From contig JBBQUY010000003.1 of the NCBI GenBank assembly GCA_038212015.1, positions 4,237 through 68,236 on the forward strand: a stretch of DNA of 64,000 nucleotides, given 5' to 3'. This DNA is from Gaiellales bacterium (GTDB taxonomy: Bacteria > Actinomycetota > Thermoleophilia > Gaiellales > SKUG01). This document shows, piece by piece, positions 3,048 to 20,679 of the stretch. The notes beneath the pieces were generated by a model that was not told the DNA's origin, ran no database searches, and worked only from the letters and a program-made list of their open reading frames with translations. The position numbers and the translations under genes were made by a program. Each line of letters begins with the position of its first letter. The stretch's first letter is position 1.

Positions 3048-3131
3048 GCGAGTGCTCCCGTCCCAAGGTCTCCCGGAGGGCCTCGGTGCGCGTCCCGGCG
3101 CACGTATTCGAGGCAGTCCTGAGTTGCCGGG

Positions 3132-3159
3132 ATATCGGGGCGGCAGACGATCATGTTGC
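3132..3159 (-). promoter_or_regulatory. sigma-28-like promoter
   Basis: GCAA-N16-CCCGATAT upstream of 2118-3047. Confidence 0.55.
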
Positions 3160-3306
3160 AGTCGAAGCGACTGCAGCACGAAGAGCTGCGGCCGGCACGA
3201 GGGAGTCGTGTCGGCCGCAGCGGGGGGAGGTCGTGCCGCTTCAAGGGGAAGGGGGAGGCGGCACGGAGGGGTTCCGACGCGGGAAACGCCGGAATGTGTC
3301 AGCGGG

Positions 3307-4305
3307 TCATGCCGCGGGCGGGTTCACCGGCTCCTTCGAGCCACCGTCGGCGCGACCGGCCACGAGCGTGTCGAGCAGCGTGTCGAGCAGGTCGACCGCC
3401 TTCTGCGTGTCGCGAGCTGCGCCGGGAACGTCGACGCCGTTGAAGCGTCCGTCAGGGCTCGGCTTCTTCGCGAGCTGCCAGTTGGCGTCCTCGAGCGATG
3501 CGTCCGCAGCGCGCAGCGTCGAGACGACGTCCGCGGGGGTGGACTGCATCTGGCGCTCAAGGCGCTCCTGCGCCGCCATGTTCGTCTTGAAGGCCTTGAT
3601 GCGCACGGCCTTGGAGCTCTCGTCACCCTTGTCGGTGGGGGAGACGGTGCTGATGATGCGCGCCGCCTCGCTGGCCAGGCGCAGGCCCTCGGTGACGTCC
3701 TCGACGAGCGTGCGGCTGCTGACCGGCGGCTTTGGATCGACGGGAGGCTTGGGTTCGACCGGCGGGCGAGGATCGACGGGCGGCTTCGGGTCGATCGGCG
3801 GCTTGGGCCGCACTGCCTGCACGTCGCGGATCACGCCGTCGACGAGCGCCCAGCTGCCGCCGACGATGGCTTCGACGCCGGAGTTGGCGTCGAGCTTGAT
3901 GCTGCCCGTGCGGGGCTGGTCGGCTCGACCGTACTCGTTGGTGCGGTACTTGAAGAAGCCGAACTCCGGCTTGTCGGCGCGGCCGAGCACCTCGATCTGT
4001 GCGCGGTCGGCACCGAACGAGTCCTCGCGGACGAAGCGCTTCGTCCAGACCGGCTGCATGAGCTCGTGCGCGGAGAACGTGTCGCCCTGACGGGTGACGG
4101 CGAACGCGCCGCCCTGCTGCTGCGACAGGCCGGCGGCCCCGCTCAGTGCGTCGTCGAGCGACGTGAAGCCGGTGCCGGCCTGCGAGCCGAGGTAGAGCGG
4201 CTCGTCACGCTTGAAGCGGATCTCGAGCTCGCCGACCTTCTGGCCAGCGCCAGGCAGGTTGGTGGTGACGGTACGGACTGCGGCGGAGGAGAGGGAGGCA
4301 ATCAT
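3307..4305 (-). CDS. orphan two-domain protein (unknown alpha/beta domain, PKPPVD linker, helical domain)
   Basis: High GC3 ORF; C-terminal domain is closely similar to that of 19724-20563 (LEDANWQLAKKPSPDGRFNGVD identical). Confidence 0.85.
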   Translation of the reverse strand: MIASLSSAAVRTVTTNLPGAGQKVGELEIRFKRDEPLYLGSQAGTGFTSLDDALSGAAGLSQQQGGAFAVTRQGDTFSAHELMQPVWTKRFVREDSFGADRAQIEVLGRADKPEFGFFKYRTNEYGRADQPRTGSIKLDANSGVEAIVGGSWALVDGVIRDVQAVRPKPPIDPKPPVDPRPPVEPKPPVDPKPPVSSRTLVEDVTEGLRLASEAARIISTVSPTDKGDESSKAVRIKAFKTNMAAQERLERQMQSTPADVVSTLRAADASLEDANWQLAKKPSPDGRFNGVDVPGAARDTQKAVDLLDTLLDTLVAGRADGGSKEPVNPPAA

Positions 4306-4412
4306 GCCGCCAATGGTCCCCTGTGACGGTGCGGCTCTGCAGTACGACGGCCGAACGGCGGCCCGCGCGGGCCGCGCCGGTGGCCCGCTGCGACGGTGTA
4401 TCGCCGGACGCG

Positions 4413-4443
4413 TGCTACGAATGTGCTACACAGATGCTACGAT
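4413..4443 (+). promoter_or_regulatory. TA operon promoter/operator: TGCTAC x3 at 11-bp spacing, the last forming an extended -10 (TGcTACGAT)
   Basis: TGCTAC at 4413, 4424 and 4435; ATG 6 nt after TACGAT. Confidence 0.6.
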
Positions 4444-4449
4444 GAACTC

Positions 4450-4716
4450 ATGGAGCCGACCAGCATCCCTCAGCGCGAGCTGCGCAATGACAGTTCCCGA
4501 ATCCTGCGGGAGGTGCAGGAGGGCAAGGAGTTCGTGATCACGGTTCGTGGCAAGCCGGTGGCGCGGATCGTGCCTGAGCGACCTGCGCATCGGGGACCGC
4601 GCACGCTCGTTCCCCGGGACGAGGCCTTGCCCATCATCATGCGCGCTCGTGCTGCGTTTGCCGGGATGACGATGCGTGATCTTCGGGATCCCGACGAGAA
4701 CGAGCCGCGGTACTGA
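4450..4716 (+). CDS. Phd/YefM-family antitoxin (VapB-type)
   Basis: IPQRELRNDSSRILREVQEGKEFVITVRGKPVARIVP Phd motif; directly upstream of a PIN toxin. Confidence 0.9.
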   Translation: MEPTSIPQRELRNDSSRILREVQEGKEFVITVRGKPVARIVPERPAHRGPRTLVPRDEALPIIMRARAAFAGMTMRDLRDPDENEPRY

Positions 4717-4717
4717 C

Positions 4718-5098
4718 ATGGCCTGGCTCTACGACACCTCCGTGATCGTCGCGATGGAAACCGGTGAATCGATGGACGAGTTTCCCATGGGTGACGTTGC
4801 GGTCTCGGTCATGACGATCGGCGAGCTGGAGCTCGGGCTCCATCGTTCCGCAGCCCAGGATCTATCGCTGCGCATCGAGACCATCGCCGACGTGGAGCAC
4901 TCATGGAACCCGTTGCCGGTCGATCTGCGCGTGATTCGGCGCTACGCGACGCTGGTGGCAGATTGCCGGCGACGTGGCGTGCGCGCCGGCGTTGCGGACG
5001 GCATCATCGCGGCGACCGCGTCAGTACATGGCTACGGCGTGGTCACGCGGGATCGGGACTTCACGCGATTCGAAGGCATCGAGGTCGTCCTCGTCTGA
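4718..5098 (+). CDS. vapC: PIN-domain toxin (VapC family)
   Basis: LYDTSVIV, SVMTIGEL, DGIIAATA, VVTRDRDF PIN motifs. Confidence 0.9.
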   Translation: MAWLYDTSVIVAMETGESMDEFPMGDVAVSVMTIGELELGLHRSAAQDLSLRIETIADVEHSWNPLPVDLRVIRRYATLVADCRRRGVRAGVADGIIAATASVHGYGVVTRDRDFTRFEGIEVVLV

Positions 5099-5104
5099 CG
5101 CTGG

Positions 5105-7183
<2,079 letters not shown>

Positions 7184-7312
7184 GGCGAGGAGGCAGTCTA
7201 TCGGGGTTGACGAGGTTCACCCGGCAGCCACCCGTAGCCCTCACACGGCCACTCGCTGGCCGTCAGTGATACGCGCTCGGCCAATTTCCCGACATCACAG
7301 GCAGGAGGACCT

Positions 7313-8995
7313 GTGGGACCGGGACGGACGAGCATCTTCAAGCGCCTTGCAGCGCACGCACTGGCATTGATCGCTGTCGCGATCCTGGTGTCCGGTTGCG
7401 GCGGGAGCGCGGATTCGGCTGCGGCCGATCCCGACGCGCCAAAGCAGCACGGCGGATCGGTGACGATCGGCATGGATCAGGAACCCGCGTGTCTCAACTC
7501 CAAGATCCAGTGTGGATCGATGGCCGCCACCTCGATGATCAGTGCGTCGCTGTTCGACGGCCTGCTCATGATCGACGGCGACGGCAACTACGCGCCCCTC
7601 ATCGCCACGGAAGTTCCCACCAAGGAGAACGGCGCGGTCGTCGACACACCCAACGGCGGCATGACGGTGAAGATGCAGCTCAATCCGGGAGCGCGCTGGT
7701 CTGACGGACAGCCGATCACGTGCGCCGACGTGGCCTTCAACTGGTCGACGACGATGGATGAGCGCTGGCAGGTCGTCTCACGCAAGGGGTGGGAGCTCAT
7801 CTCCGACGTGCAGTGTCCTGCGCCGACCACCGCGGTGTTCGTGTTCAGCGAGCGCTATGCGCCGTACCTGAGCCTGGTCGGCGCCGCGCCGCTGCCCAAG
7901 CACGTACTCGACGGCAAGGACTTCAACAAGTACTTCAACGAGGCGATCCCGATCTCGAGCGGACCGTTCCTGCTGCACAAGTGGAACCGTGCTGTCGACG
8001 TGCAGCTCAAGCGCAACCCCAAGTACTGGAACGCCGGCAATGATGATCGCCCCTGGCTCGACACGATCCGGTACGTGTTCGTCGCTGACACGAACACCCT
8101 CAAGATCCAGCTGCGCACCGGCGAGGTGGACATCATCAGCCCGCCGCCCGACAGCACGCTCAAGCAGGAGCTCGAAGGTTTCCCGCGTGGCGGGTTCCAG
8201 ATCGAGCCGGGCATCTACTGGGAGCAGATCGCGTTCAACAACGCGAAGGCACCGACCAACGACATCAACGTACGCAAGGCGATCGCGTACTCGATCGACC
8301 GCGACCAGATCACCGACGTGGTGCTCAAGGGGCAGGTCGAGCGACTGGACTCGACACTGCTTCCGGCCAAGAAGGAGTACTACATCCCCGCCTGGGAGCA
8401 CGTGACGTACGACACGAAGAAGGCCGAGGAATACCTGACCAAGGCCGGCTACAAGCGCAACGGTCAGTACTTCGAGAAGGGCGGCAAGCCGCTCACCGTG
8501 CAGTTCAAGTCGACCGCGGGCAACGATCTGCGCCTCAAGGTGGCGCAGCTCCTGCAGCAGCGCCTCAAGGCGAGCGGCATCAAGATGGACATCGCGCTGG
8601 AACCGCCGAACGTGTTCTTCGGTCAGAGCACCCCGGCCGGCAACTTCCACATGGGCCTGTGGGCCTGGTCGAGCGGCATCGATCCGTCGCAGGAAACGAT
8701 GTTCCCGTGCGACCAGATCCCGAGCGAGGCCAACGAGTTCTCCGGCCAGAACAACTACCGCTACTGCAACGAGCGTGTCAGCGCGCTCATCAAGCAGGGC
8801 AACGTCACGACCGACCAGGCGGAACGCATCAAGATCACGCACGAGATCCAGACCCTCATGGCGGAGGACATGCCGCTGCTGCCGCTGTTCCAGCGACCGG
8901 AAACGCTCGCGTACACCGATCGCACGCAGGGCATGGAATCGAATCCGCTCGGCGGACTGGTGTGGAACGCAGCTGACTGGGCGGTGGCGAAATGA
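7313..8995 (+). CDS. peptide ABC transporter substrate-binding lipoprotein (family 5)
   Basis: Lipobox LVSGC; WSDGQPITCADV; NVRKAIAYSIDR. Confidence 0.93.
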   Translation: MGPGRTSIFKRLAAHALALIAVAILVSGCGGSADSAAADPDAPKQHGGSVTIGMDQEPACLNSKIQCGSMAATSMISASLFDGLLMIDGDGNYAPLIATEVPTKENGAVVDTPNGGMTVKMQLNPGARWSDGQPITCADVAFNWSTTMDERWQVVSRKGWELISDVQCPAPTTAVFVFSERYAPYLSLVGAAPLPKHVLDGKDFNKYFNEAIPISSGPFLLHKWNRAVDVQLKRNPKYWNAGNDDRPWLDTIRYVFVADTNTLKIQLRTGEVDIISPPPDSTLKQELEGFPRGGFQIEPGIYWEQIAFNNAKAPTNDINVRKAIAYSIDRDQITDVVLKGQVERLDSTLLPAKKEYYIPAWEHVTYDTKKAEEYLTKAGYKRNGQYFEKGGKPLTVQFKSTAGNDLRLKVAQLLQQRLKASGIKMDIALEPPNVFFGQSTPAGNFHMGLWAWSSGIDPSQETMFPCDQIPSEANEFSGQNNYRYCNERVSALIKQGNVTTDQAERIKITHEIQTLMAEDMPLLPLFQRPETLAYTDRTQGMESNPLGGLVWNAADWAVAK

Positions 8996-9996
8996 CAGGT
9001 CTCGCACTCAGGCGAATGCTGGAAGCGATCCCGGCCCTCATCGTGGTGAGCATCATCATGTTCGGCCTGCTCGCGCTCGGTCCGAACCCGCTCGAACTGC
9101 TCAAGCAGAACCCGAACATCACGAGCGAGGACGTCGAACGTCTCACGAAGATGAACGGGTGGGACAAGCCCGTCACCGAGCAGTACGTACACTGGGCGAG
9201 CAACTTCGTGAAGGGCGACCTGGGAACGTCGACGGTCGACCAGCGCCCCGCGTGGGACAAGATCAAGGAACGCCTGCCGCTGACGCTCATGATCACCGGC
9301 ATGTCGATGGTGCTGTCGCTGTCGATTGCACTGCCGATCGGGGCGTACGTCGCGGTGCGCAAGTACTCGAAGGCCGACTATGCGGCAACGCTCACGACGT
9401 TCGCGATGATGGCGTCTCCATCGTTCTTCGTCGGACTGCTGCTGCAGCTGTTCGCCCTGAAGCTCCAGGACGCGCTCGGTGGAACGCTCCTCGTCTACAC
9501 GGCCGGTGCACCACAGTGCGTGGCATCGAGCAGCGGATTCTTCGGCACGATGTTCGGCTGCCTGTCAACACCGTTCGAGGTGTTCCAGCGACTGGCGCTG
9601 CCGGTGTTCGCGCTGTCGATCCTGCAGATCGCCGGATGGTCTCGCTACATGCGCAGCGAGCTGCTCGGCGTGCTCAACCAGGAGTACATCCGCAGCGCGA
9701 TGGCCAAGGGCCTGCCCGGCAAGCTCGTGTTCATGCGGCATGCGATGCGCAACGCGCTGCTGCCGATCGTGACGATCGTCGCGCTCGACATCGCCGGACT
9801 GTTCGGCGGTGCCGTCATCACCGAGCGCGTCTTCGGACTGCCGGGAATGGGCAACCTGCTGCTCGACTCGCTCGGCCAGAAGGACATCGCCGTGGTGCTC
9901 GCGATCGTGATGATCGGAGCTGCCCTGGTGCTCTTCATGAACATGGTCGCCGACGTGCTGTACGGCGTACTGGATCCACGGGTGAGGGTCGGCTGA
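8992..9996 (+). CDS. peptide ABC transporter permease (OppB/DppB)
   Basis: EYIRSAMAKGL..HAMRNALLP, FGLPGMG, LDPRV motifs. Confidence 0.93.
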   Translation: MTGLALRRMLEAIPALIVVSIIMFGLLALGPNPLELLKQNPNITSEDVERLTKMNGWDKPVTEQYVHWASNFVKGDLGTSTVDQRPAWDKIKERLPLTLMITGMSMVLSLSIALPIGAYVAVRKYSKADYAATLTTFAMMASPSFFVGLLLQLFALKLQDALGGTLLVYTAGAPQCVASSSGFFGTMFGCLSTPFEVFQRLALPVFALSILQIAGWSRYMRSELLGVLNQEYIRSAMAKGLPGKLVFMRHAMRNALLPIVTIVALDIAGLFGGAVITERVFGLPGMGNLLLDSLGQKDIAVVLAIVMIGAALVLFMNMVADVLYGVLDPRVRVG

Positions 9997-9997
9997 C

Positions 9998-11029
9998 ATG
10001 AGTGCTGCACAGAACGCCAGCTCTTCGCTGCCGACACCGTTCGGCAAGGCAACTGCCGCCGCCGGTTCACTGACGAACGCCGGCACGCTCAACCTGCCGA
10101 ACCGCGGCAACACCGACGCGCAGCCCATGAGCGCGCCACCGCGCACGCAGATCCAGCAGACGTGGGACAGCTTCCGCGCGCACCGCGCCGCCTTCATCGG
10201 ACTGTGCGTGCTCATGACGATGATCGTCGTCTGCACGCTCGGCCCGTTCGTGCTGCAGGACCCCGACGCGATCGACATGCAGGTGCTCGGCTATCAGGCA
10301 CCGAGCGCGTCGCATCCGCTCGGTACCGACGCGATCGGTCGCGACGTGCTGTCGCGCCTGGTCAACGCAGGGCGCACGTCGCTGGCGATCGGTTTCAGCG
10401 TCGCGATGGGCGCCGCACTGATCGGGTCGATGGTCGGTGTCAGTGCGGGCTACTTCGGCGGGCGGATCGACTCCGGGCTGATGTGGTTCGCGAACGTGAT
10501 GATGTCGATCCCGTCGATGCCGCTGCTGCTGACCGTGGCGGTCATCGTCGCGAACGAAGAATCCAAGGTCGGGCCAGTCATCCAGAAGGTCCCGGAGTGG
10601 GCGCGCATCGCGCTGGTGCTCATCATCCTGGGATGGATGGGTGTCAGTCGCGTCGTGCGCTCGCAGGTGGTGAGCCTGCGCAACCAGGAGTTCGTGGAAG
10701 CCGCGCTCGCGCTCGGCGGCACGCACAAGCGAGTGATGGTCGTGCACATCCTACCGAACTGCGTGAGCGTGCTCGCGGTGTTCACCACCCTCGCCGTGTC
10801 AGGCGCCATCATCGCCGAGAGCGCACTGAGCTTCCTCGGTTTCGGCGTGCAGCCGCCGACCGCTACGTGGGGCAACATGCTCGCGGAGGGCAAGGGGCTC
10901 ATCACGATTCTGCAGTACTGGTGGGCGGTCTGGTTCCCGGCACTGGCGATCTTCGCCACCGTGCTGAGCGTCAACTTCATCGGCGACGGCGTCCGCGACG
11001 CGCTCGATCCCAAGGCGCAGAAGAAGTAG
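9998..11029 (+). CDS. peptide ABC transporter permease (OppC/DppC)
   Basis: HPLGTDAIGRDVLSR, EFVEAALALG, ESALSFLGFG, GDGVRDALDPK. Confidence 0.93.
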   Translation: MSAAQNASSSLPTPFGKATAAAGSLTNAGTLNLPNRGNTDAQPMSAPPRTQIQQTWDSFRAHRAAFIGLCVLMTMIVVCTLGPFVLQDPDAIDMQVLGYQAPSASHPLGTDAIGRDVLSRLVNAGRTSLAIGFSVAMGAALIGSMVGVSAGYFGGRIDSGLMWFANVMMSIPSMPLLLTVAVIVANEESKVGPVIQKVPEWARIALVLIILGWMGVSRVVRSQVVSLRNQEFVEAALALGGTHKRVMVVHILPNCVSVLAVFTTLAVSGAIIAESALSFLGFGVQPPTATWGNMLAEGKGLITILQYWWAVWFPALAIFATVLSVNFIGDGVRDALDPKAQKK

Positions 11030-11078
11030 CACCGCCGGTCGCCGCGCGCGAGCGCGTGCACCGATCGATCCGCATTCC

Positions 11079-11110
11079 CGAAAGGCGCACGGTCTCGTGC
11101 GCCTTTCGAG
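11079..11110 (+). terminator. hairpin, probable terminator of the opp operon
   Basis: CGAAAGGCGCAC-ggtctc-GTGCGCCTTTCG. Confidence 0.6.
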
Positions 11111-11226
11111 TGCCGTCGAACGGTGGGTGGGCTTCCTGGGACCTGCGGCGTGCGGAAGTCGTGACGAAGTGGTGTGTCACTCGTGGCATTCGTGACACTT
11201 TCGTGACGAAATGGACGGCACGCTGG

Positions 11227-11275
11227 GAGGTGAAGCAATCCACTATCCCAGAGGGACAGTAGATGACCACACCTG
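11227..11275. repeat. 49-bp palindromic repeat family A, copy 1 (contains the ATG of the AbiEi-DUF559 gene)
   Basis: GAGGTGAAGCAATCCACTATCCCAGAGGGACAGTAGATGACCACACCTG; 41/49 identical to the reverse complement of 12847-12895. Confidence 0.85.
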
Positions 11276-12174
11276 CCAGTCGAGACGCCCGAATCGCTGC
11301 GATTGCGCACAGGCAGCACGGACTGATCACGACGGCGCAGCTGCGCGAGTGTGGTCTGAACGACTCCTCGATCTGCAAGCGCGTCCAGTCCGGCCGACTG
11401 CACCGTCTGCACCGTGGCGTGTACGCGGTCGGCCATGGGTCCGTCTCGCGCGACGCAACATGGACGGCCGCCGTACTGGCTGCGGGCGGTGACGCCGCGT
11501 TGAGTCATGTGGCAGCGGCGGCACACTGGCGGATCTGGCGACGGGGCGGTGCCGTCGAGACGACGCTGGTCGCGTCCCGACGCGCTCGGGGGATCGTCGG
11601 CGTGCGAGTCATCATGACGCGCACGCTCCATCGTCGGGACGTGCGCGTGCGCTTCGACATTCGCGTCACGAGCGTCGAGCGAACGATCGTCGACCTGGGC
11701 TCGATCCTGTCGCCGTGGCAGCTTGCCAACGTCATCCACGAGGCCGAGTTCCGTAATCGCCTGTCCCTGCGCGAGCTGGACCGCGTGCTGGTTCGCAATC
11801 GGGGGCGTGGTGCGGTGACGACGGTACGGCGCGCACTCGAGATTCGCTCGAGAGGAAGCTGGGGAACGCTCAGCGACCTTGAGGACGCGTTCCTGGCGAA
11901 GGCACACGGCCGCGGCCTCGATCCGCTCGTCAACTGTGCAGTCGACGTACTGGAAGGAACGGTCCGTCCGGACTTCTGCCGGCCGGAAGCCATGATCGCG
12001 ATCGAGGTGGACGGCTCACCGCACGGACGGGTCCGAACGAAGCGCGAGGACCGGGGTCGGGCAGCACAGCTCCGAGAAGCGGGATATGTGGTCATTCGGT
12101 GTGGTGCTGACGACATGGATGCATGTCTCGACGAGGTCGAGCGGCTGATGCGTGAGGCCGGCGTGCTCGTCTAA
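11263..12174 (+). CDS. AbiEi-family wHTH plus DUF559 (Vsr-like PD-(D/E)XK) domain protein
   Basis: IAHRQHGLITTAQL, LHRLHRGVYAVG, SHVAAA, VTSVERTIVDL, RPDF..IAIEVDGSPH..DR.R..LREAGYVVIR. Confidence 0.85.
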   Translation: MTTPASRDARIAAIAHRQHGLITTAQLRECGLNDSSICKRVQSGRLHRLHRGVYAVGHGSVSRDATWTAAVLAAGGDAALSHVAAAAHWRIWRRGGAVETTLVASRRARGIVGVRVIMTRTLHRRDVRVRFDIRVTSVERTIVDLGSILSPWQLANVIHEAEFRNRLSLRELDRVLVRNRGRGAVTTVRRALEIRSRGSWGTLSDLEDAFLAKAHGRGLDPLVNCAVDVLEGTVRPDFCRPEAMIAIEVDGSPHGRVRTKREDRGRAAQLREAGYVVIRCGADDMDACLDEVERLMREAGVLV

Positions 12175-12226
12175 CCGTGCGCAGCACGGGAACATGCAGG
12201 GATCTCGAGCGAGACCGGAGATCGCC

Positions 12227-12838
12227 ATGATCGACACGTCGACCTATCACCATCCTGCGACGCTGGAACTGACACGGCACCCGGAGGCGAACGAACTCAT
12301 CGCTCGCGATCCGGCAGCGCTGCTCATCGGATGGATCTGCGACCAGCAGGTACGAGTGCAGCAGGCATTCTCGGCTCCGTGGCACCTGGCCGAGCGGCTC
12401 GGCACGATCGAGCCGTCTGACATCGCAGCGATGCCGGTCGAACGGATCGTGGAGGCCTTCACCGAGCAGCCGCCGCTGCATCGATACGGACGTTCGATGG
12501 CGCAGCGCGTGCACGCCTGCATGAACGTAGTGGTCGACGAGTACGGCGGCGATGTCGAACGCGTCTGGCTTGAGGCAGAGGACTATGAGGACCTCGCGCA
12601 GCGGATCCAGGCGCTTCCGGGATTCGGCATCACGAAGGTGCCGGCGTTCATCGCGATGCTGGCGCGGCGGTTCGGGCTCGAGGTGAGCGGATTCGAGGGC
12701 GCGCTGCCGAGTTATGGCAGCCTGTCGGAGGTCGAGACATACGACGACCTGAAGACGTACCAGGCGCGCAAGCACGAGTGGAAGCAGGCACGCGTGCAGC
12801 GCCCCACCGGGGTGCGACACGTCACGCGTCTCGAGTAG
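12227..12838 (+). CDS. HhH-GPD-type base excision repair protein (actinobacterial family)
   Basis: DPAALLIGWICDQQV..AF.AP, PPLHRYGRSMA, ALPGFG..K..FIAMLARRFG. Confidence 0.85.
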   Translation: MIDTSTYHHPATLELTRHPEANELIARDPAALLIGWICDQQVRVQQAFSAPWHLAERLGTIEPSDIAAMPVERIVEAFTEQPPLHRYGRSMAQRVHACMNVVVDEYGGDVERVWLEAEDYEDLAQRIQALPGFGITKVPAFIAMLARRFGLEVSGFEGALPSYGSLSEVETYDDLKTYQARKHEWKQARVQRPTGVRHVTRLE

Positions 12839-12846
12839 TCGGGCGC

Positions 12847-12895
12847 GAGGTGTAGTCATCTGCTGTCCCAGTGGGAAAGCGGATTGCTACACCTC
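12847..12895. repeat. palindromic repeat family A, copy 2 (inverted relative to copy 1)
   Basis: GAGGTGTAGTCATCTGCTGTCCCAGTGGGAAAGCGGATTGCTACACCTC. Confidence 0.85.
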
Positions 12896-13058
12896 GCGAA
12901 AAAGCTCGCACGGAGCGAACTTCTGGTGAGGGCACGGCGCGCTGGCGCGCGCGGAATTGCATCGGGGGCCCCTGGCGTGGGCCCCCGACTGGCGTAGCTA
13001 CTACCTTCGCAATGTGTATGTGTGCGGCGCGTGGCGCCGTGGCACTGCGGCGTATGCG

Positions 13059-13472
13059 TCAGACCGCGACGGGCAGCAGGACGGGCAGGACGCCGTCGGC
13101 GGTGGCGACGCTGACGATGCGCGGTGAGTACTCACCCGGTTCCAGGCGCATGGCGGCGGCCCAGTCGAGCTCGGGGCCGACGGTCGCGACGAGGTAGCCG
13201 GTCGAGCTGGCGAGCACGACATGCTGGATGCCGGAGCGTCCGGCGAGGATCCATGCGACGCGGTCTGCGACAGCAAGGTCGGACGCCTCCTCGAACACCT
13301 GCAGCACGCAGACCTCCACATCCGTGCCGGGCGACATGCCCCGGAGGATGCCGATCGCAAGGCCCTGCAGCGCGTGCCATCCCGTGATGGGCGCGTGCCC
13401 GGGAAGGTCGGCGAGCTCGGCGTGCTCGGTGGTGGGAACGATATGGGCGGCTGCGGCGTGATGGGAGTTCAT
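13059..13472 (-). CDS. hypothetical protein
   Basis: High GC3 ORF preceded by a sigma-28-like motif. Confidence 0.7.
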   Translation of the reverse strand: MNSHHAAAAHIVPTTEHAELADLPGHAPITGWHALQGLAIGILRGMSPGTDVEVCVLQVFEEASDLAVADRVAWILAGRSGIQHVVLASSTGYLVATVGPELDWAAAMRLEPGEYSPRIVSVATADGVLPVLLPVAV

Positions 13473-13503
13473 GCATTGAAGGTACGACGCGACTGCTGAT
13501 CGT

Positions 13504-13530
13504 TGATCGGGGCGAATTACCTACGTTTGC
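13504..13530 (-). promoter_or_regulatory. sigma-28-like promoter
   Basis: GCAA-N15-CCCGATCA. Confidence 0.55.
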
Positions 13531-13574
13531 ACCCAGGTAGGTACGGACCGCACCGTCCCGGGTAGGGGGCATCC

Positions 13575-14681
13575 GTGCCAAACGACGTGGACACGCCACA
13601 AACGCCGCCCTTCGAACCATCAGCCGAGCAGTTTCTGCTCGAGCTGCTCGACGTGCCCGCGCCCTCCGGATTCGAGGACGCGGCAGCTGCGAAATTCGCG
13701 GAATACGCGGCGACGTTCGACGCGGAAACGTCGACCGATCGCGTCGGCACCGCCTTCGCAACCGTCAATCGCGGGAGCGGCCCTCGCATCGCGATCGTCG
13801 GACACGTCGACGAAATCGGGCTCATCGTCACGAAGATCAACGACAAGGGCTTCTGCAAGGTCGGCTCGATCGGTGGCTGGGACGCGGTCGTCCTGCCGGG
13901 CCAGCGGGTCCGCATCATGTCGACCCCCACGGGTGGCACGATCCTCGGCACGATCAGCCGCACCGCGGTCCATGCCCTCGACCAGGCAGCGCGCGAGCGT
14001 GCCCCCAAGATCGACGACCTCTGGGTCGACGTCGGCGCCCGATCCGGCGACGAGGCGCGCAGCCTCGTGCGTGTGGGAGATCCGATGGTCATGGACGTCG
14101 TCCCCCGACGCATCGGCCCACCCGACTCCATGCGCCTCGCCTCGCGCTCGATCGACAACCGCGTCGGCGCGTTCGTCGCACTGGAGGTCGCCCGCATCTG
14201 CAAGGAGCGCGACGTGGCAGCCGAAGTCGTCGCCGTCGGATCCGTGGGCGAGGAGAACGGCATGGGTGGCGCGACCGTCGCCATGTACGGGCTGCAGCCT
14301 GATCGCACCTGCGTGGTCGACGTCACCACGCCCGGTGACACGCCCGGTGCATCGGACCTGGGCGACCTCAGGCTCGGCAAGGGTCCGATCATCTCGCGCG
14401 GAGCGACACTGAGCGCACGCGTCGTCGACGAACTCATCGCCGCGGCCGAGGACGCCGAGATCCCGCACCAGCTGCGTGCCAAGGGACTTCGCACCGCGAC
14501 CGACGCCGACCAGACCATCAAGGCAGGACGAGGCATGGCCACATGCCTGGTGAGCGTGCCGGCGCGCTACCTGCACACGCCGGTCGAGCAGGTCGACCTG
14601 CGTGACGTCCGCGCTTCGATCGACGTGATCGTGGCCTGGGTCGAGCGTGTCGCCGCTGCACACCCAAGGAGCACCACATGA
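13575..14681 (+). CDS. M42 family aminopeptidase
   Basis: APSGFE, GHVDEIG, IGGWD, IDNR, GEENG, RYLHTPVE. Confidence 0.92.
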   Translation: MPNDVDTPQTPPFEPSAEQFLLELLDVPAPSGFEDAAAAKFAEYAATFDAETSTDRVGTAFATVNRGSGPRIAIVGHVDEIGLIVTKINDKGFCKVGSIGGWDAVVLPGQRVRIMSTPTGGTILGTISRTAVHALDQAARERAPKIDDLWVDVGARSGDEARSLVRVGDPMVMDVVPRRIGPPDSMRLASRSIDNRVGAFVALEVARICKERDVAAEVVAVGSVGEENGMGGATVAMYGLQPDRTCVVDVTTPGDTPGASDLGDLRLGKGPIISRGATLSARVVDELIAAAEDAEIPHQLRAKGLRTATDADQTIKAGRGMATCLVSVPARYLHTPVEQVDLRDVRASIDVIVAWVERVAAAHPRSTT

Positions 14682-15775
14682 GCGATACCGGCGCCGACGA
14701 CACGTCGACATCCACCAAGAAGCGACCCGTGCCCTACTACTCCGGTGACGTGCGCGTCGAAGGCGAATCGCTCGACTTCCTGCTGCGCCTGCTCGACACG
14801 CCTGCACCATCAGGCTTCGAGGAACCGGCCGCCGAGGTCGTGTCCGACTACGCGAAGGAATGGGCCGACGACGTCCGCGTCGACGCGATCGGCAACGTCC
14901 ACGTCACCGTGAACAAGGGCGCCGCCGGCGGCCGCGTGATGCTGTCCGGACACATCGACGAGATCGGCTTCGTCGTGACCCGCATCGACGACAAGGGCCT
15001 CGTCCGATTCGAGCAGGTCGGTGGCTGGGACCTGTCGGTCCCCGTCGGACAGCGCGTGCGCATCCTCACGCGCCAGGGCATCGTGCTGGGCACCGTCGGC
15101 AAGCTCGCGCCGCATCAGATGAAGGACCGGGCGAAAGCGCCGACGATCAAGGACATCTGGATCGACATCGGGGTCGCCACTCCCGACGAGGCGAAGGCGA
15201 TGCTGCGCATCGGCGACCCGATCGTGCTCGACACCACGCCGCACGTCTTTCCCAATCGTCGCGTCATGAGCCGCTCCGTCGATGACCGCATCGGCGCGTT
15301 CATCGCACTGGAAGCAGCCCGCCGCGCCAAGGGCTCGAACATCGAAGTCATCGCGATGTGCGCCACCCGGGAGGAGATCGGCTGCATCGGCGCGATGCCC
15401 GGCACCTTCGGTGCGGATCCCGACGAGGCGATCGCCATCGACGTGACCTGGACGTCGGACGTTCCGGGCGACCATCCCGAGGACTCCGACGTCGGCAAGG
15501 GCCCGTCCGTCACGTTCGGCGCGACCACGCGTGCGCGCATCGGTCGCGAGCTCGTGGCGATCGCGGAGGAGGCCGGGATCGACATCCAGATCTCCGCATC
15601 CGGGCGCGCGACGTTCACCGACGCGGACACGATCGTCCGCGCGGGCCGCGGCGTGCCCGTGGGGGTGGTCAGCATCCCGACGCGCTATCTGCACTCGCCC
15701 GGCGAGCTGTTCGCGCTCGAGGATGCCGAAGCCGCGATCGACCTGCTCACACGCTGGGCCACGCGCGATCGTTGA
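14678..15775 (+). CDS. M42 family aminopeptidase (tandem paralog)
   Basis: APSGFE, GHIDEIG, VGGWD, VDDR, REEIG, RYLHSPGE. Confidence 0.92.
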   Translation: MSDTGADDTSTSTKKRPVPYYSGDVRVEGESLDFLLRLLDTPAPSGFEEPAAEVVSDYAKEWADDVRVDAIGNVHVTVNKGAAGGRVMLSGHIDEIGFVVTRIDDKGLVRFEQVGGWDLSVPVGQRVRILTRQGIVLGTVGKLAPHQMKDRAKAPTIKDIWIDIGVATPDEAKAMLRIGDPIVLDTTPHVFPNRRVMSRSVDDRIGAFIALEAARRAKGSNIEVIAMCATREEIGCIGAMPGTFGADPDEAIAIDVTWTSDVPGDHPEDSDVGKGPSVTFGATTRARIGRELVAIAEEAGIDIQISASGRATFTDADTIVRAGRGVPVGVVSIPTRYLHSPGELFALEDAEAAIDLLTRWATRDR

Positions 15776-15910
15776 CGGTTCTCGACCGCGTCGACACGTG
15801 CGTTTCGAGCGCTGAACAGTCGTGGCATCGCGAGGCCGGCGAACTGGCCTCGTAGGGCACCGTTCACCAGAACTGCCTCACGCGTCTGCAGGTCCGGGCA
15901 AGATACGCAC

Positions 15911-16729
15911 ATGCAGATCGCCTCGTTCGCACCCGTTGTGCCCGCCGCCCAGTACCGTCCGGTCAGCCCGACGCTTGCCGACGGCGCGACGTCCGAGCAC
16001 CAGCGCGCCGCTGGCGAGGACCTGTCCCGGTACTACGCACCGGCCCAGGGCAAGGAAGGCGCGGACCTGCTGCGCGCACTGCACCTGATCGTGCGAACCG
16101 GGCACGTCGACCGCGGGTACGCACAGGCGCGCGACGAGCTGTTCGCGGATGTCGCCGACCTGGACAACGACAACCAGATCGAGGACCTGTTCACCGGCGA
16201 GCTGCGCGGACCGATCACGGGTCGCAAGGATGGCTTCGACAAGGGTTTCAACACGGAGCACACCTGGCCGCAGAGCAAGGGTGCCACCGGCATCGCGCAG
16301 AGCGACCTGCACCACCTGCACCCGTCCAACATCACGACCAACGAGCGTCGAGGCAGCCTGCCGTACGGCGAGGTCGTGACGATCGACTGGTCGGTCGGCG
16401 AGGGCACGCGGCAGGCCAAGCGCGGCGTCGACGAGCTCGGGAAGACCGTGTTCGAGCCGCGCGAGGACATCAAGGGTGACATCGCCCGTGGGCTGCTCTA
16501 CTTCTACACGCGCTATGCACAGTCGCGCCCGGGCGACTTCACGCTCGTGAACTTCAGGCACGAGCTGCCGACGCTGCTGCAGTGGCACAAGGCCGACCCG
16601 GTGACGGATGTCGAGCGCCAGCGCAACGACGCGGTGCAGAAGGTCCAGGGCAATCGCAATCCGTTCGTCGACCGCCCCGAGTTCGTCGACCAGATCAAGT
16701 TCTCGGCCCTCGAGCTGGGTCGCGGTTGA
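15911..16729 (+). CDS. endonuclease I family (His-Me finger) nuclease without Sec signal
   Basis: NTEHTWPQS, DLHHLHP, RGSLPYG, KGDIARGLLYFYTRY, QGNRNPFVD. Confidence 0.9.
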   Translation: MQIASFAPVVPAAQYRPVSPTLADGATSEHQRAAGEDLSRYYAPAQGKEGADLLRALHLIVRTGHVDRGYAQARDELFADVADLDNDNQIEDLFTGELRGPITGRKDGFDKGFNTEHTWPQSKGATGIAQSDLHHLHPSNITTNERRGSLPYGEVVTIDWSVGEGTRQAKRGVDELGKTVFEPREDIKGDIARGLLYFYTRYAQSRPGDFTLVNFRHELPTLLQWHKADPVTDVERQRNDAVQKVQGNRNPFVDRPEFVDQIKFSALELGRG

Positions 16730-17361
16730 GCAAGCCCCGCGCGCGACTGGTCGCCGGCAGCATCCTGCTGGCGACGAGCATCATCATCGGCGCGCTCGTC
16801 ACCTTCATCGGCGAGCCCCCGTTCGACCTGCGCATCGTGCTGGAAGCTGCCGCCTGGCGTGACGGAGCAGTCGGGCGCCTCATGGACGGCGCATCGGACG
16901 TCGGCTACGGGCTCTGGCTCGTGCCGGCGTCGCTCGTGATCGCACTGCTGCAGGCCTGGGTGCCGCACTACCGACGCGACGCGACGATCGTCGCGCTGTC
17001 GACCACGACCGCGGTGATCTGCACACGCATCCTCAAGGAGACGTTCGAGCGCACGCGTCCGGAGGATGCCCATGAGCTCGTTGCTGGCTTCTCGATGCCG
17101 AGCGGGCATGCGACGTCCGCGGCAGCGTTCGCCGTGTCGCTGCTGCTCGTGCTGCCGGGCACGCGTGTGGGTAACCTGGCGCGGACAGCGCTTGTCGCCT
17201 TCGCGATCGTCGTCGGCATGTCGCGCGTCGTGCTTGGCGTGCACTACCCGACCGACGTGATCGCCGGGTTCTGCTCCGGCATCGGCGTCACGCTCCTCGT
17301 GTCCGCGCTCGTCGACATGGCGTGGGCGAAGCGCATGCCGGTCGGCACATCGCGCATCTGA
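16726..17361 (+). CDS. PAP2-family membrane phosphatase
   Basis: LKETFERTRP, SMPSGHA, SRVVLGVHYPTDV; TTG start overlaps the upstream stop. Confidence 0.88.
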   Translation: MSKPRARLVAGSILLATSIIIGALVTFIGEPPFDLRIVLEAAAWRDGAVGRLMDGASDVGYGLWLVPASLVIALLQAWVPHYRRDATIVALSTTTAVICTRILKETFERTRPEDAHELVAGFSMPSGHATSAAAFAVSLLLVLPGTRVGNLARTALVAFAIVVGMSRVVLGVHYPTDVIAGFCSGIGVTLLVSALVDMAWAKRMPVGTSRI

Positions 17362-17379
17362 GCGCGGTACGCTTTCGGC

Positions 17380-18147
17380 ATGTGTGGTCGTTATCAGCTC
17401 GCGCTTCCGGGGCGCACCCTCGCCAACCTGCTGGACGCGCAGCTCGCAGCCGTCGGCGTGCAGCCGACGTGGAACGCGGCGCCGACGCAGGTGCTGCCGG
17501 TGCTGGGGCTCGCGGCGGATGGCCGGCGTGTGCTGCAGGGGGCGGAGTGGGGCCTCGTGCCCGGCTGGGCGCGGCTCCCCGGACGCGACCTGCGCCCGCT
17601 CATCAACGCGCGGTCGGAGACCGTCGTCGAGAAACCCGCGTTTCGATCGGCCGTGCGCACGGGGCGCATCCTCGTGCCGGCAACCGCTTTCTACGAATGG
17701 CACGGCCCCAAGGGTGCAAAGGTGCCGCACCTGATCCGCGTGCGGGGCGCAGGAATCGACGAGACGACCGGCACTCGACTGGACCACGACGCCGCGCCGG
17801 GCGAGGTCGTCGAACCGTTCCTGATTGCAGGGTTCGCGGAGGAGTGGACGACCCCCGACAACGTTCCCGAGCTGACCTTCACGATCCTCACGACCACGCC
17901 CAACGAGCTGTGTGAGCCGATCCACGATCGCATGCCCGCGATCCTGGAAGGTGACGATGCGCAGGCGTGGCTGGAGGCGCCGCCGGAGGACACCCAGCTC
18001 GTGCTCGACCTGCTGGGACCGTTCCCGGCCGAGCGCATGGAGGCCTGGCCGGTGTCTCGAGCCGTCAACGACGCGCGCCACGACGGCGCCGGGCTGTCGG
18101 TGCCGGCCGGCGCGGTCGACGCGGTCGACGACGGTCAGCTGTTCTGA
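17380..18147 (+). CDS. SOS response-associated peptidase (SRAP/YedK/HMCES)
   Basis: N-terminal MCGRY, INARSETV, FYEW, IHDRMPAIL. Confidence 0.93.
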   Translation: MCGRYQLALPGRTLANLLDAQLAAVGVQPTWNAAPTQVLPVLGLAADGRRVLQGAEWGLVPGWARLPGRDLRPLINARSETVVEKPAFRSAVRTGRILVPATAFYEWHGPKGAKVPHLIRVRGAGIDETTGTRLDHDAAPGEVVEPFLIAGFAEEWTTPDNVPELTFTILTTTPNELCEPIHDRMPAILEGDDAQAWLEAPPEDTQLVLDLLGPFPAERMEAWPVSRAVNDARHDGAGLSVPAGAVDAVDDGQLF

Positions 18148-19415
18148 TGTCGGTCGTCAGCGCGCAGGCGGTAGTCGACGACGACCGGATGGTGATCGCT
18201 CGAGTCCACGCCGTCGACCACGTGCGTTCCGACGCGCGCCCTGGCGACGTCGAATTGGTCTGAGGCGTACACGCGATCGATCGGCGTGCGCGGGGTCGCG
18301 CTGCCGAACGTACGGCGTGCGGGGTCGTCGAGCGCCATGCCGGAGGCTGTGAAGGCGTCACGCAGCCCGGCGGAACGGAATGCGGCGGCTTCCTTGTCGC
18401 CGTGAGCCGTGTTCGATTTCACGTTGAAATCCCCGCCCACGATGGTCGGGCCATCCCACGCCGCGAGCAGCCCCGCGAGCGGATCGATCTGGCGACGCGG
18501 ATGATCGACTCCATCAGATGCCCAGCTCCAGTGGCCCGAAAGCACGCGGACGTCGGTGCCGCCAGGGGTGGTGATCATCACGTCCGCGGTCGAGCGTGGT
18601 CGATACATCGGCGAGTTGAAGGGATGCCACTCGCGATCGGCGATCTTGTCGGCGAGCAGGCCTGCGACGGCGTCTGCAGCCCCCGCGATGCGGCGCGCTG
18701 GGCCACCGCCGAATGCATCAGGACTGACGATGCCGCGTGCATCCGCGATGGTCACACCGTTGAACGTCAGCACGGCCGTTCCGTTGCGACGTCCGGTGAC
18801 CGAGTGGATCGACGGCGTGTGCACCGCGCCGTCGGCATCGAGGCGGTCGGCAAGGGTTCCAAGGACGTCACGGAAGCCGGACTGGACGGCGTGGTCGTCG
18901 ACTTCCTGCAGGAGCACGACGTCCGGTCGTTCGCGTTCGATCGCACGGGCCACGCGCTCCAGGTCGGCCGCGCCACCGACCAGATCGCCGCCGGGGCCGA
19001 GCGAGCCATGGATGTTGAAGCTCATGACCCGCAGCGACTCGTCCGCGCGAACGTCGCCGCTGGCGACCGATGCTCCTGCTGCTGCGGCGGTCGAGACCGA
19101 ATCGGTTCCGCGGCGTCGCAGCACGTCGAGCAGCACGCCGCCGCCCACGAGCAGCGCGGCGCCACCCATCGCGCCGAGTACACCCATGCCGATGCGTCCA
19201 GCGATGCCGCGACCTGCGCGGGCAGCGAGCAACGCAGTCGTGCCGGCCCCGATTCCAGCGCCGGCGGCGAGTACGCCCCAGCGCTCGTTGAACCGGGTGC
19301 CGATGCGGTCGATCGCCGACGGCTCATGGGGCGCAACACCGTCGAGCGCGGGCAGGGCAACGTCGCGCGTGGGCACGCGCTTGAACACTGCTGCATGGTC
19401 GACTGTGAGGCCCAC
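18135..19415 (-). CDS. endonuclease/exonuclease/phosphatase (EEP) protein with N-terminal Gly-rich TM hairpin
   Basis: LRVMSFNIH, DVVLLQEVD, IVGGDFN, IDRVY, SDHHPV. Confidence 0.88.
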   Translation of the reverse strand: MGLTVDHAAVFKRVPTRDVALPALDGVAPHEPSAIDRIGTRFNERWGVLAAGAGIGAGTTALLAARAGRGIAGRIGMGVLGAMGGAALLVGGGVLLDVLRRRGTDSVSTAAAAGASVASGDVRADESLRVMSFNIHGSLGPGGDLVGGAADLERVARAIERERPDVVLLQEVDDHAVQSGFRDVLGTLADRLDADGAVHTPSIHSVTGRRNGTAVLTFNGVTIADARGIVSPDAFGGGPARRIAGAADAVAGLLADKIADREWHPFNSPMYRPRSTADVMITTPGGTDVRVLSGHWSWASDGVDHPRRQIDPLAGLLAAWDGPTIVGGDFNVKSNTAHGDKEAAAFRSAGLRDAFTASGMALDDPARRTFGSATPRTPIDRVYASDQFDVARARVGTHVVDGVDSSDHHPVVVDYRLRADDRHQNS

Positions 19416-19451
19416 CCGATCCCATCGTCCCGCGTCCGTCCGAACACCTGT

Positions 19452-19478
19452 TCATCGGGTCACGGACCGATCGCGTGC
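19452..19478 (-). promoter_or_regulatory. sigma-28-like promoter of the EEP gene
   Basis: GCAC-N15-CCCGATGA. Confidence 0.45.
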
Positions 19479-19489
19479 CGACCCAGCAC

Positions 19490-19583
19490 AGCAAAAGCCG
19501 CCGACGGGGGCTGATCCGTCGGCGGCTTTCGAAGAGGTCACGGGGGTAACCGGCGGTCGCTGCCGTGGCTGGCGGGCAACCAC
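19490..19583 (-). ncRNA. putative small RNA (about 90 nt)
   Basis: Bounded by TCAG-N16-TCCGATCA and a strong terminator; no convincing ORF between them. Confidence 0.45.
19492..19530 (-). terminator. intrinsic terminator
   Basis: AAAGCCGCCGACGG-loop-CCGTCGGCGGCTTTT on the minus strand. Confidence 0.85.
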
Positions 19584-19588
19584 CCTCA

Positions 19589-19616
19589 TGATCGGAACAT
19601 CACCGTGGGGTCCTGA
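19589..19616 (-). promoter_or_regulatory. sigma-28-like promoter
   Basis: TCAG-N16-TCCGATCA. Confidence 0.55.
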
Positions 19617-19723
19617 CCATCAGCATGTCGATTAGGTCCGGCTGGCCCATCGGCGATGCCGCGATCTGCAGGTTCGAGCCGTGGTGAGGAATCACTACCG
19701 TGATTCGACTCCCAGATCGGGAT

Positions 19724-20563
19724 CTACGAATCACCCTTGAGGATGTCCTCGTCCTTCGGGAATTCGTCCTCGCCGGGGTAGTCCGAATCCGGCGTGCCAC
19801 CCGCGGGCGGGGTCGGTCCCGACGGCGGTACCGGCGGCAGGTCGGGTTCGGTTGGCGGGGCAGGCGGCAGGTCCGGATCGGTGCCACCACCGCCACCGGG
19901 AACCGGCGGCCAGGAGGGGGGCTGTGAGCCGCCGGGTGCCGGCGGCGGGAAGGTCGGACCGCTGGGGGGCGGGGTCGGGCCGCTCGGCGGGTGGACTGGC
20001 GGGTCGGGCGGGCCGGTGGGCGGACCACTCGGCGGATCCACCGGCGGCGGCACGTTCGGCGTGGTCGGCTGACCACCAGCCGCTCGCAGCAGCTCGTCGA
20101 TGATGCGTGCACCTTCGGCGGTGTCGCGAACCGCACCGGGAATGTCCACGCCGTTGAAGCGCCCGTCCGGGCTCGGCTTCTTGGCGAGCTGCCAATTCGC
20201 GTCCTCGAGGTAGGCGTCGGCCTTGCGCAGCTCGCTCACCACTGCCTCGGGGTTGGTCTCGCCCAGCTGCTTCTCGAGCCGCTTCTGCACGGCCATGTTC
20301 GTCTTGAACACGCGGATGCGGATGTCCTTGGTCGCATCGGATCCGCCATCGTCGAGCGGCACGGTGCCCAGCATCTCGACCGCCTTCGCCGCCAGGCGCG
20401 ACGATTCAGTCAGGTCGACGACGAAGTTCGCGGACACGCCGGTGAGCGTCGACCCGGGTGCGGGTGGCGTCGTGGGCGAAGTCGGCGGAGCGGTCGACGG
20501 GCCGGAGGGCGGCACACCGATGTTCGGCACCTGGACAGGGCTGGGGGAGACTCGCGTGAGCAT
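19724..20563 (-). CDS. orphan Pro-rich protein with helical domain paralogous to 3307-4305
   Basis: Shared FKTNMA..LEDANWQLAKKPSPDGRFNGVD.PGA.RDT; start is one of three tandem ATGs (20569-20563). Confidence 0.85.
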   Translation of the reverse strand: MLTRVSPSPVQVPNIGVPPSGPSTAPPTSPTTPPAPGSTLTGVSANFVVDLTESSRLAAKAVEMLGTVPLDDGGSDATKDIRIRVFKTNMAVQKRLEKQLGETNPEAVVSELRKADAYLEDANWQLAKKPSPDGRFNGVDIPGAVRDTAEGARIIDELLRAAGGQPTTPNVPPPVDPPSGPPTGPPDPPVHPPSGPTPPPSGPTFPPPAPGGSQPPSWPPVPGGGGGTDPDLPPAPPTEPDLPPVPPSGPTPPAGGTPDSDYPGEDEFPKDEDILKGDS

Positions 20564-20679
20564 CATCATCGTGTCGAACCATCCCCAGCCGGAAGCGGTT
20601 GGAGTCAGCCGGCATGGACCTATGGGGAGGTGTGGGCCACGGCTCAGGCCCTCAGCGGCGGCGTCTGGGTCGTGCGCCC

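Follow-up and report, generated by a model that had tools for sequence, protein, structure and literature searches.

Two genes in the 64,000-nucleotide stretch of DNA analyzed here (the window; contig C3, positions 4237-68236, of a Gaiellales bacterium), P0001 and P0002, encode proteins of different architecture that share a conserved domain of ~125 residues, and this domain defines a protein family that is previously undescribed, as judged by a full-text search with its motif strings and by the family libraries compared. The assembly comprises 3.49 Mb in 176 contigs, is 86.7% complete and has a GC content of 68%. The shared domain is predicted to be an up-down four-helix bundle, one end of which is highly conserved. 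We tentatively propose that the bundle is a docking module for a membrane hub, a protein with two transmembrane helices (2-TM protein) that shares its restricted distribution; we consider this possible rather than probable.

A conserved domain in two genes of the window and its paralogues

P0001 (332 aa; 3307..4305, minus strand) represents architecture A of the family. Behind a disordered, Ser/Thr-rich N-terminus (residues 1-22 of the AlphaFold2 (AF2) model), it contains a beta-rich N-domain (residues 23-161; 3823..4239), a polyproline-type linker (residues 166-196; 3718..3810; PKPPIDPKPPVDPRPPVEPKPPVDPKPPV) and the C-terminal four-helix bundle (residues 197-322; ~3340..3717). The linker follows the repeat pattern (P-x-P-P-V/I-D/E), is without secondary structure in the model and has predicted local distance difference test (pLDDT) values of 65-73. 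P0002 (281 aa; 19724..20569, also minus strand) represents architecture B, with a Pro-rich N-terminus, the bundle (residues 46-166; ~20072..20434) and a long Pro-rich tail that ends in an acidic motif (..DEFPKDEDILKGDS). Both open reading frames (ORFs) are present, and their GC contents at codon positions 1, 2 and 3 are typical of coding sequence (0.70/0.50/0.90 for P0001 and 0.71/0.59/0.84 for P0002). Their orthologues at loci L006 and L010 of a related assembly are 78 and 75% identical, respectively. A promoter and terminator scan of window positions 1900-4600 returned no sites.

The sequence-only reading that led to this analysis had proposed a domain of ~110 aa duplicated in these two genes and flanked in both by Pro-rich linkers. 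The shared segment is real: residues 197-322 of P0001 and 46-166 of P0002 are identical at 71 of 127 aligned positions (56%; BLASTP, E = 7e-42), the motifs it had quoted are seen in the alignment, and, judged from that alignment, the similarity is far beyond chance. The domain is longer than proposed, at ~125 aa, with boundaries that were set for P0001 from the BLASTP alignment, the DSSP assignment of the AF2 model and the invariant columns. Pro-rich segments flank the bundle on both sides in P0002 but only precede it in P0001, where merely a short Pro-containing tail follows. The most striking part of the alignment is a 22-residue run, LEDANWQLAKKPSPDGRFNGVD, which covers the end of helix 3 and loop 3 of P0001 (3430..3495) and recurs in P0002 (20144..20209); it is identical in these two proteins and in two of three further copies.

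These further copies were found by a six-frame search of the genome with the domain, which raised the number of intact copies from the two originally noted to five. The three copies outside the window are tandem neighbors on the minus strand of contig C16 (27069-29696), flanked on one side by an aconitase-like gene and on the other by a long gene for a 2-oxoglutarate-dehydrogenase-like protein (neighbors named by eye from their translations). The window also holds the relic of a sixth copy, a further architecture-A paralogue (1668..2039, minus strand), that retains part of the N-domain only; its bundle and its companion 2-TM gene, both found in L006, are missing. Its ORF matches the L006 protein encoded at 9950-10942, an intact paralogue at the equivalent place, with an E of 9e-12 and 31% identity over 86 aa (tblastn). 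In a blastn comparison, ~1.8 kb of L006, comprising this paralogue and its 2-TM gene, corresponds to ~0.3 kb in the window.

The codon table of the five paralogues shows synonymous differences at 11 of the 20 fully invariant codons of the 22-residue run, while two more codons alternate between A and V or L and V, and third-position identity between the five copies ranges from 0.59 to 0.86. The identity of the run is thus held at the protein level. The ratio of nonsynonymous to synonymous substitution rates (dN/dS) is 0.28 for whole P0001 and 0.25 for its domain, compared to the L006 orthologue, and 0.13 for whole P0002 and 0.065 for its domain, compared to the L010 orthologue. By these codon comparisons, the bundle genes are selected, expressed-type genes under purifying selection and not recent gene-conversion copies.

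A word-seeded search identified 77 proteins at E<=0.001, all of which were annotated as hypothetical or were nameless, and the ten with an NCBI organism name were all from metagenome-assembled genomes (MAGs) of Thermoleophilia. When a profile built from the five domains was compared with all 1,835,955,588 representatives, 40 matches were found at E<=0.001, including 34 at <=1e-10 and 25 at <=1e-30. P0100, P0103, P0104, P0107, and P0099 are true distant relatives, in which loop 3 is partly changed and R..AY..NM.AQ, ADA.LE.ANW, and GK.P are retained; P0109, the cluster-mate of P0107, shows the same pattern. P0102 and P0106 were rejected as chance matches, as both are long repeat proteins with an FNGVDIPGA-like stretch, and a further one of the 40, P0098, is probably a chimera (see below). 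The bundle is present in five of the nine genomes of the window's GTDB family, which are 52-88% complete and in which a missing match is not proof of absence, and in one of 301 genomes sampled across the class, the window's own (0 of the 300 others). An exact-pattern scan of species-representative genomes returned nine loci in three Thermoleophilia MAGs. The bundle is so far known from a single uncultured family of this class.

Family libraries and sequence databases gave no name for the domain. P0001 and P0002 had best E-values of 0.05 against Pfam, far below the cut-off, and 0.14 against NCBIfam; among the 77 members, no Pfam family recurred in the domain region, and the few matches lay in the Pro-rich linkers. 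PHROGs and PADLOC returned no families, the best match of the domain profile to PDB sequences was a designed filament (E = 0.63), the ESM Atlas held no usable match, and the full-text literature search with family motif strings found no paper. The bundle family is outside every family compared. It is the sequence family that is new; its class, a four-helix-bundle interaction module on Pro-rich linkers, is familiar.

At least five layouts exist in the family. In addition to architectures A (beta domain, linker, bundle) and B, we found proteins with a helical N-domain, linker and bundle, with or without a C-terminal extension (architectures C and D; P0043 and P0070), proteins in which the bundle comes first and is followed by an extension (architecture E; P0076), two-bundle proteins (P0078 and P0109), proteins with a Gly/Tyr-rich N-terminus (P0088 and its cluster-mate P0110), and a single case of a transmembrane (TM)-anchored form (P0079). 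The helical N-domain of architectures C and D was not detected as a diverged bundle (hhalign probability of 6%). In a maximum-likelihood tree of 98 domain sequences, each of the five copies of this genome belongs to a clade of its own, together with orthologues from other assemblies, and the groups of P0001 and P0002 are sisters (99/99 support); the automatic architecture labels on the tree are crude, and it is the clades, not label statistics, on which we rely. The joining of these modules is thus ancient, and the combinations have been maintained. The sequence-only reading, which had described a lineage-specific, shuffled and unrecognizable module, therefore stands in these respects and had undercounted the copies.

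It was also observed that, of 68 proteins in which the bundle is the last domain, 46 have a terminal Ala and 22 a terminal Ala-Ala (e.g., ..PAAA, ..TTAA, and ..PPAA). These C-termini could reflect composition and shared descent, or could be a feature resembling a C-terminal degradation tag.

Fold and conserved tip of the bundle

The AF2 model of P0001, built with the 77-sequence alignment, has a pLDDT of 87.6 and shows an up-down four-helix bundle with helices at residues 197-218, 229-253, 258-278, and 293-321 (DSSP). Loop 3 consists of 14 residues, of which a 10-residue block averages a pLDDT of ~70. In P0001 numbering, the invariant and near-invariant columns of the alignment are P222, D225, and G227 in loop 1, K232, R235, N242, Q246, and E250 at the start and on one face of helix 2, S262 to K281 in the second half of helix 3, P282 to D292 in loop 3, and G295, A296, and D299 in the first turn of helix 4. 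Given that loops 1 and 3 share one end of an up-down bundle, these positions should make a single tip surface, a clustering deduced from the bundle topology and not from inspected coordinates. By the alignment, this tip is nearly invariant over all paralogues while the remainder of the bundle drifts. Such invariance is most likely to reflect a common partner that is bound by the tip, and the invariant loop would then be a binding surface, which the sequence-only reading had suggested as one option, with a catalytic surface as the other.

Catalysis, or the binding of a small ligand or ion by a sensor or enzyme module, is in our view improbable. The invariant D268, E272, D273, K281, D285, R287, and D292, together with W276 and F288, would suit such a role, and the ligand-binding four-helix-bundle sensor domains PcaY, McpS, and KinB are among the fold matches. 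In the alignment columns, however, neither His nor Cys is invariant, and motifs for the binding of nucleotides or metals are absent. There is no sign of catalysis, and the distant relatives P0100, P0107, and P0109 alter much of loop 3. The sensor domains are moreover flanked by TM helices that are absent here. A sensor of the 4HB_MCP type was rejected, as its receptor layout, with the bundle between two TM helices, was found in 0 of 104 members.

Comparisons of the model with solved structures yielded generic matches. Foldseek searches of the PDB and BFVD returned nothing at E<=0.001, with Borrelia Vsp/OspC, PcaY-type sensor domains and FAT/GIT1 domains as the top PDB rows. VIA-align gave a top Z of 13.3 and 187 chains at Z>=8, all of which are simple bundles (designed proteins, BRIL fusions, FliS, and PsbQ among them). 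Such a result is what the tool describes for generic helical bundles, and the fold is hence uninformative on function. The best Foldseek rows came from Borrelia OspC/Vsp and the sensor domains PcaY, McpS, and KinB (1yjg_D, E = 3.9e-3, target-normalized TM-score of 0.58; 6s1a, E = 0.014). Unlike these proteins, which have a lipoprotein signal or TM helices on either side, 102 of the 104 bundle members have neither.

The FAT domain of FAK/Pyk2 and the paxillin-binding domain of GIT1 resemble the bundle family in fold, in size and in the docking role proposed here (4xek, 3gm1, 6iuh, and 6jmu; E = 0.016-0.04 with Foldseek; Z = 10.2 for 6jmu with VIA-align). Both bind short LD-motif peptides, which is analogous to the proposed gripping of a short conserved partner peptide by the bundle. 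They have, however, no sequence relationship to the family (9-16% identity in the structural alignments), are eukaryotic, bind along the grooves between helices whereas the bundle family is conserved at its loop end, and match no better than unrelated bundles do.

FliS, a four-helix bundle of ~120-130 aa that holds the disordered C-terminal segment of its client, also appears among the fold matches (3iqc, Z = 11.9; 1orj, Z = 10.9; 6ch3, Z = 10.4; Z = 10.2-11.9 over its rows, within the 187 chains at Z>=8). That the family is flagellar, either as an FliS-like chaperone or as a substrate of the flagellar exporter, is nevertheless highly improbable. The organism is flagellated, with five flagellin or FlgL-like genes on contigs C19, C30, and C52, and in the metagenomic ORF P0098 a flagellin N-terminus is followed by half a bundle, the C-terminal one. 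The FliS rows, however, are not set apart from dozens of unrelated bundles, and none of the 77 members has a match to FliS or any other flagellar Pfam family. The bundle family also differs from FliS in its invariant loop 3 and its modules on Pro-rich linkers. Bundle genes are not found near flagellar genes, their neighbors being transporters, peptidases, tricarboxylic acid (TCA)-cycle enzymes and orphans, and flagellin is present in all nine genomes of the GTDB family as against five of nine for the bundle. P0098 (150 aa; PF00669, E = 1.5e-16) is probably an assembly chimera: it is a singleton on a 794-nt contig, its N-terminus is unlike the flagellins of the genome, and its two parts meet at a point at which flagellin and bundle sequences alike read ..A.DASL... 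By eye, three of the flagellin genes are preceded by sigma-28-like boxes (..TAAAGG/TCAAGG.. followed by ..GCCGATG/GTCCGATG..), and no convincing promoter of this kind was seen upstream of the bundle genes.

A tip that is frozen in all paralogues could also be a self-association surface through which bundle proteins form homo- or hetero-oligomers, and hence a multi-module complex without any other partner. We regard this as unlikely, even though a self-complementary interface of co-expressed paralogues would be expected to freeze in all of them, which fits a near-identical tip in five diverged copies, and even though two-bundle chains exist (P0078 and P0109) and three paralogues are in tandem on C16. 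What self-association leaves unexplained is the repeated adjacency of bundle and 2-TM genes and their shared distribution.

The 2-TM proteins as candidate partner and the side of the membrane

Directly downstream of P0001 lies P0111 (2118..3050, minus strand; 309 aa from the ATG at 3050), which is the candidate partner by its translation, homologue alignment, adjacency, co-distribution and complex prediction. Its N-tail is conserved and is followed by two TM helices rich in Gly, a small module that is also conserved (..IAVASGLPTRA.AGEFAGKMVGR.YSIEQD..GKWAVFDEGP), a stretch rich in Tyr, Gly, His, and Pro, the motif PPSYD repeated seven times, and an invariant C-terminus (..NSSSNGNPDYDDF) that takes the acidic-aromatic form ..SNGNP.YDDF in the family. 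Seven homologues of similar length were found in addition to the window copy, all from Thermoleophilia or unnamed metagenomes. The bundle is an independently folding unit, and each genome carries several old paralogues in which polyproline-type linkers join it to unrelated modules, such as a beta-rich domain without a known fold, domains made of helices, Pro-rich tails of some length, another bundle or, once, a TM anchor. Under the docking proposal, all paralogues would bind one common partner through the tip, so that the bundle would bring proteins with different modules together at one site. The 2-TM family with its Tyr/Pro/Asp-rich tail, encoded directly downstream of bundle genes, is the best candidate for that partner. 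We infer that the bundle may bind P0111 with the conserved tip as the contact, and the tip may grip the acidic-aromatic C-terminus of the 2-TM protein.

The pairing of the two genes is repeated. The P0001/2-TM pair is syntenic in L006, and the assembly that contains L006 and L010 has two more bundle genes, each with a paralogous 2-TM gene next downstream (three pairs in total). In L010, a two-bundle protein is followed by the 842-aa P0108; in L006, an architecture-A paralogue is followed by a 215-aa ORF (11081-11728). In both P0108 and the 215-aa partner, the TM hairpin is retained, as are the small module and a C-terminus of the form ..S(S/T)SNGN... The same three pairs with matching spacing are found on contig C12 of genome G306, which is possibly the same assembly and was counted once. 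It is the third pair, in L006, that the window lacks as a whole; from the comparison at the relic site, the bundle and 2-TM genes were lost, or were gained in the relative, together. Apart from the 2-TM genes, the neighborhoods in the window and in loci L006-L011 showed no recurring theme. In P0108 (L010 3702-6230), a small module of the form G-Y-x-S...AV...GG(R/K)(T/G)YA(F/Y) also occurs three times, and the SSSNGNADW end is preceded by a long charged segment of the RQRELERQRE type.

The distributions of the two families are also similar. Among the nine genomes of the GTDB family, four have both the bundle and the 2-TM protein (G000, G305, G306, and G302), one has the bundle only (G303), and four have neither (G304, G307, G301, and G308). 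In the class-level sample, the 2-TM protein was found in one of 301 genomes, which is again the window's own. As the genomes are few, related and incomplete, this shared distribution is suggestive rather than statistical. For the complex prediction, full-length P0111 with its alignment was paired with the bundle alignment and compared with three controls. The median of the interface score ipSAE was 0.33 (runs of 0.23, 0.56, and 0.33), the best of the three controls had 0.00, the runs agreed in at least 12% of contacts, and the partner pLDDT was at least 81. In the calibration of the tool, 116 of 157 solved complexes reached the pass mark, as did 2 of 215 mismatched pairs; for scores of <=0.60, the passes comprised 18 of the 157 solved complexes and both of the passing mismatches. 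The prediction lends weak support to the pairing.

The tail of the 2-TM protein is reminiscent of single-stranded DNA-binding protein (SSB), in which a disordered linker and an acidic C-terminal tip (..DDDIPF) form a hub gripped by partner proteins. The layout is the same, with a low-complexity Tyr/Pro/Gly-rich stretch before an invariant acidic tip whose last residue is aromatic (..NPDYDDF-COOH). This is an analogy only: the two are not homologous, the 2-TM protein is a membrane protein while SSB binds DNA, and binding of the 2-TM tip by the bundle is a proposal.

Several observations weigh against docking on the 2-TM protein. The complex prediction gave no interface, and, by the calibration of the tool, a pass with a score of 0.33 is wrong in most cases, except where the two proteins were already likely to pair. 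Adjacency to 2-TM genes is limited to architecture-A and two-domain members, whereas P0002 and the three C16 copies sit among housekeeping genes, and G303, which is 81% complete, has bundle copies without a 2-TM match. With few, closely related genomes that are 52-88% complete, the co-distribution is weak statistics. Four-helix bundles such as that of the model are generic, and function is hence not told by the fold. Finally, the evidence on the side of the membrane on which the bundle and P0111 reside conflicts. A lipoprotein-like protein on contig C42 has a tail of the 2-TM type, which suggests that this tail class is outside the cell, where bundles without a signal would need another export route.

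The lipoprotein-like protein is encoded at C42 22750-23523 (minus strand), has the lipobox LALAAC and an EF-hand-like DKDGNGTLSRDE, and shares with the 2-TM class a low-complexity tail of the GGSTSPGDD type that ends in the tip ..NSTDNGNPSEDDF. Its neighbor (23684-24556, plus strand) has an N-terminal TM anchor and TSPGDD repeats, and ends in GPGDDYPVF. From these features, the C42 proteins appear to belong to a broader class of envelope proteins with Tyr/Pro/Asp tails in this organism.

The main rival to the docking proposal is that the bundle proteins are themselves exported by a non-classical route and work in the cell envelope, where the bundle would anchor on the wall or on external Tyr-rich tails; candidate routes would be the type III apparatus of the flagellum or a holin-like channel formed by the Gly-rich 2-TM neighbor. 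We consider this rather unlikely on balance. Nearly all full-length members start with M-[IQLM]-[LAV]-[ST], followed by a stretch rich in S/T/P/A and poor in D, E, and K, and the export reading gains from the fact that all architectures have a similar, uncharged S/T/P/I-rich N-terminus that is D/E/K-depleted compared to the whole proteins, a likeness that may also be mere common descent. It would likewise suit rigid Pro-rich linkers, which recall envelope-spanning spacers, the absence of Cys from 91 of 104 members, the occurrence of the 2-TM tail and tip class on a protein with a lipobox-type signal, and the five flagellin-like genes of the genome. A hydrophobic 19-aa window of >=1.6, however, occurs in just two of 104 members, as real TM helices in P0079 and in a strand region of P0097; the other 102 have no hydrophobic segment fit for a signal peptide or anchor, and thus no Sec-type signal. 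The unequal distribution of flagellin and bundle over the nine family genomes indicates no specific link between them.

A type VII secretion route was rejected, as no WXG100 gene and no EccC-like ATPase was found in the 87%-complete genome. PF06013 had no match in the 77 members or anywhere in the genome, and the conserved W of the bundle, in helix 3, is followed by QLAKK and not by xG. A search for an EccC/EssC-type ATPase with PF01580 gave one FtsK-like ORF over the cut-off and three sub-threshold P-loop matches, although in an incomplete genome this does not prove absence. This counts against the export reading too.

Charge counts made by eye point to the cytoplasm. The flanks of the P0111 TM hairpin contain six K/R vs. 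three in the inter-helix loop, which favors placing both ends of P0111 in the cytoplasm, and the positive loop of P0079, the sole TM-anchored member, makes it more likely that its bundle is inside, contrary to an envelope location. A cytoplasmic bundle would fit the missing signal peptides. A more novel reading is also conceivable but quite doubtful: the bundle and Gly-rich 2-TM proteins might form a new, Thermoleophilia-specific envelope system, in which signal-less modular cargo would be exported through or captured by the 2-TM partner and displayed on its Tyr-rich, extensin-like tail, with the bundle tip holding the acidic-aromatic C-terminus. Were it true, this would be a new pairing of cargo and anchor and a new way to build a monoderm surface, with the P0001 N-domain as a displayed new fold.

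Accompanying modules, neighboring genes and implications

The beta-rich N-domain of P0001 was also modeled on its own (pLDDT of 85.2 and predicted TM-score (pTM) of 0.76). Compared with solved structures, its best VIA-align Z was 3.8, with none of 48161 chains at Z>=5, its best Foldseek E was 0.25, and the ESM Atlas held no usable match; the model suggests that it may be a new fold. The N-domain model had weak VIA-align matches to SPOR domains (RlpA, Z = 3.2; CwlC, Z = 2.6), and neither the N-domain core nor the small module of the 2-TM protein matched SPOR or any other Pfam family. Homology between this core and the small module is not established (hhalign probability of 1%; pairwise E of 0.055).

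In the window, a small ORF overlapping a PIN-domain gene (4396-5098, plus strand; Pfam PIN, E = 8.1e-11) lies between P0001 and an ABC-F-type ATPase gene, and the pair looks like a VapBC-type toxin-antitoxin module. Upstream of P0002, three conserved orphans are found on the minus strand (20680-20943, 21006-21476, and 21945-22943): an 87-aa Cys-rich protein that is 86% identical to its L010 orthologue, a protein of 156 aa, and one of 332 aa that contains ..YLTQERWLHIRENH... In L010, the two-bundle protein and P0108 are inserted between the 156-aa and 332-aa orphans.

At present, the bundle represents a well-delimited new domain family in organisms that are not yet culturable. If the proposed docking on the 2-TM protein is true, it would be a self-contained docking system of one poorly known actinobacterial lineage, built from a four-helix grip and a membrane hub. 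It would add a compact peptide-binding module, possibly of use as a tag, together with a beta-rich domain without a structural match, and would provide the first functional handle on conserved, multi-copy orphan genes of uncultured soil Thermoleophilia.

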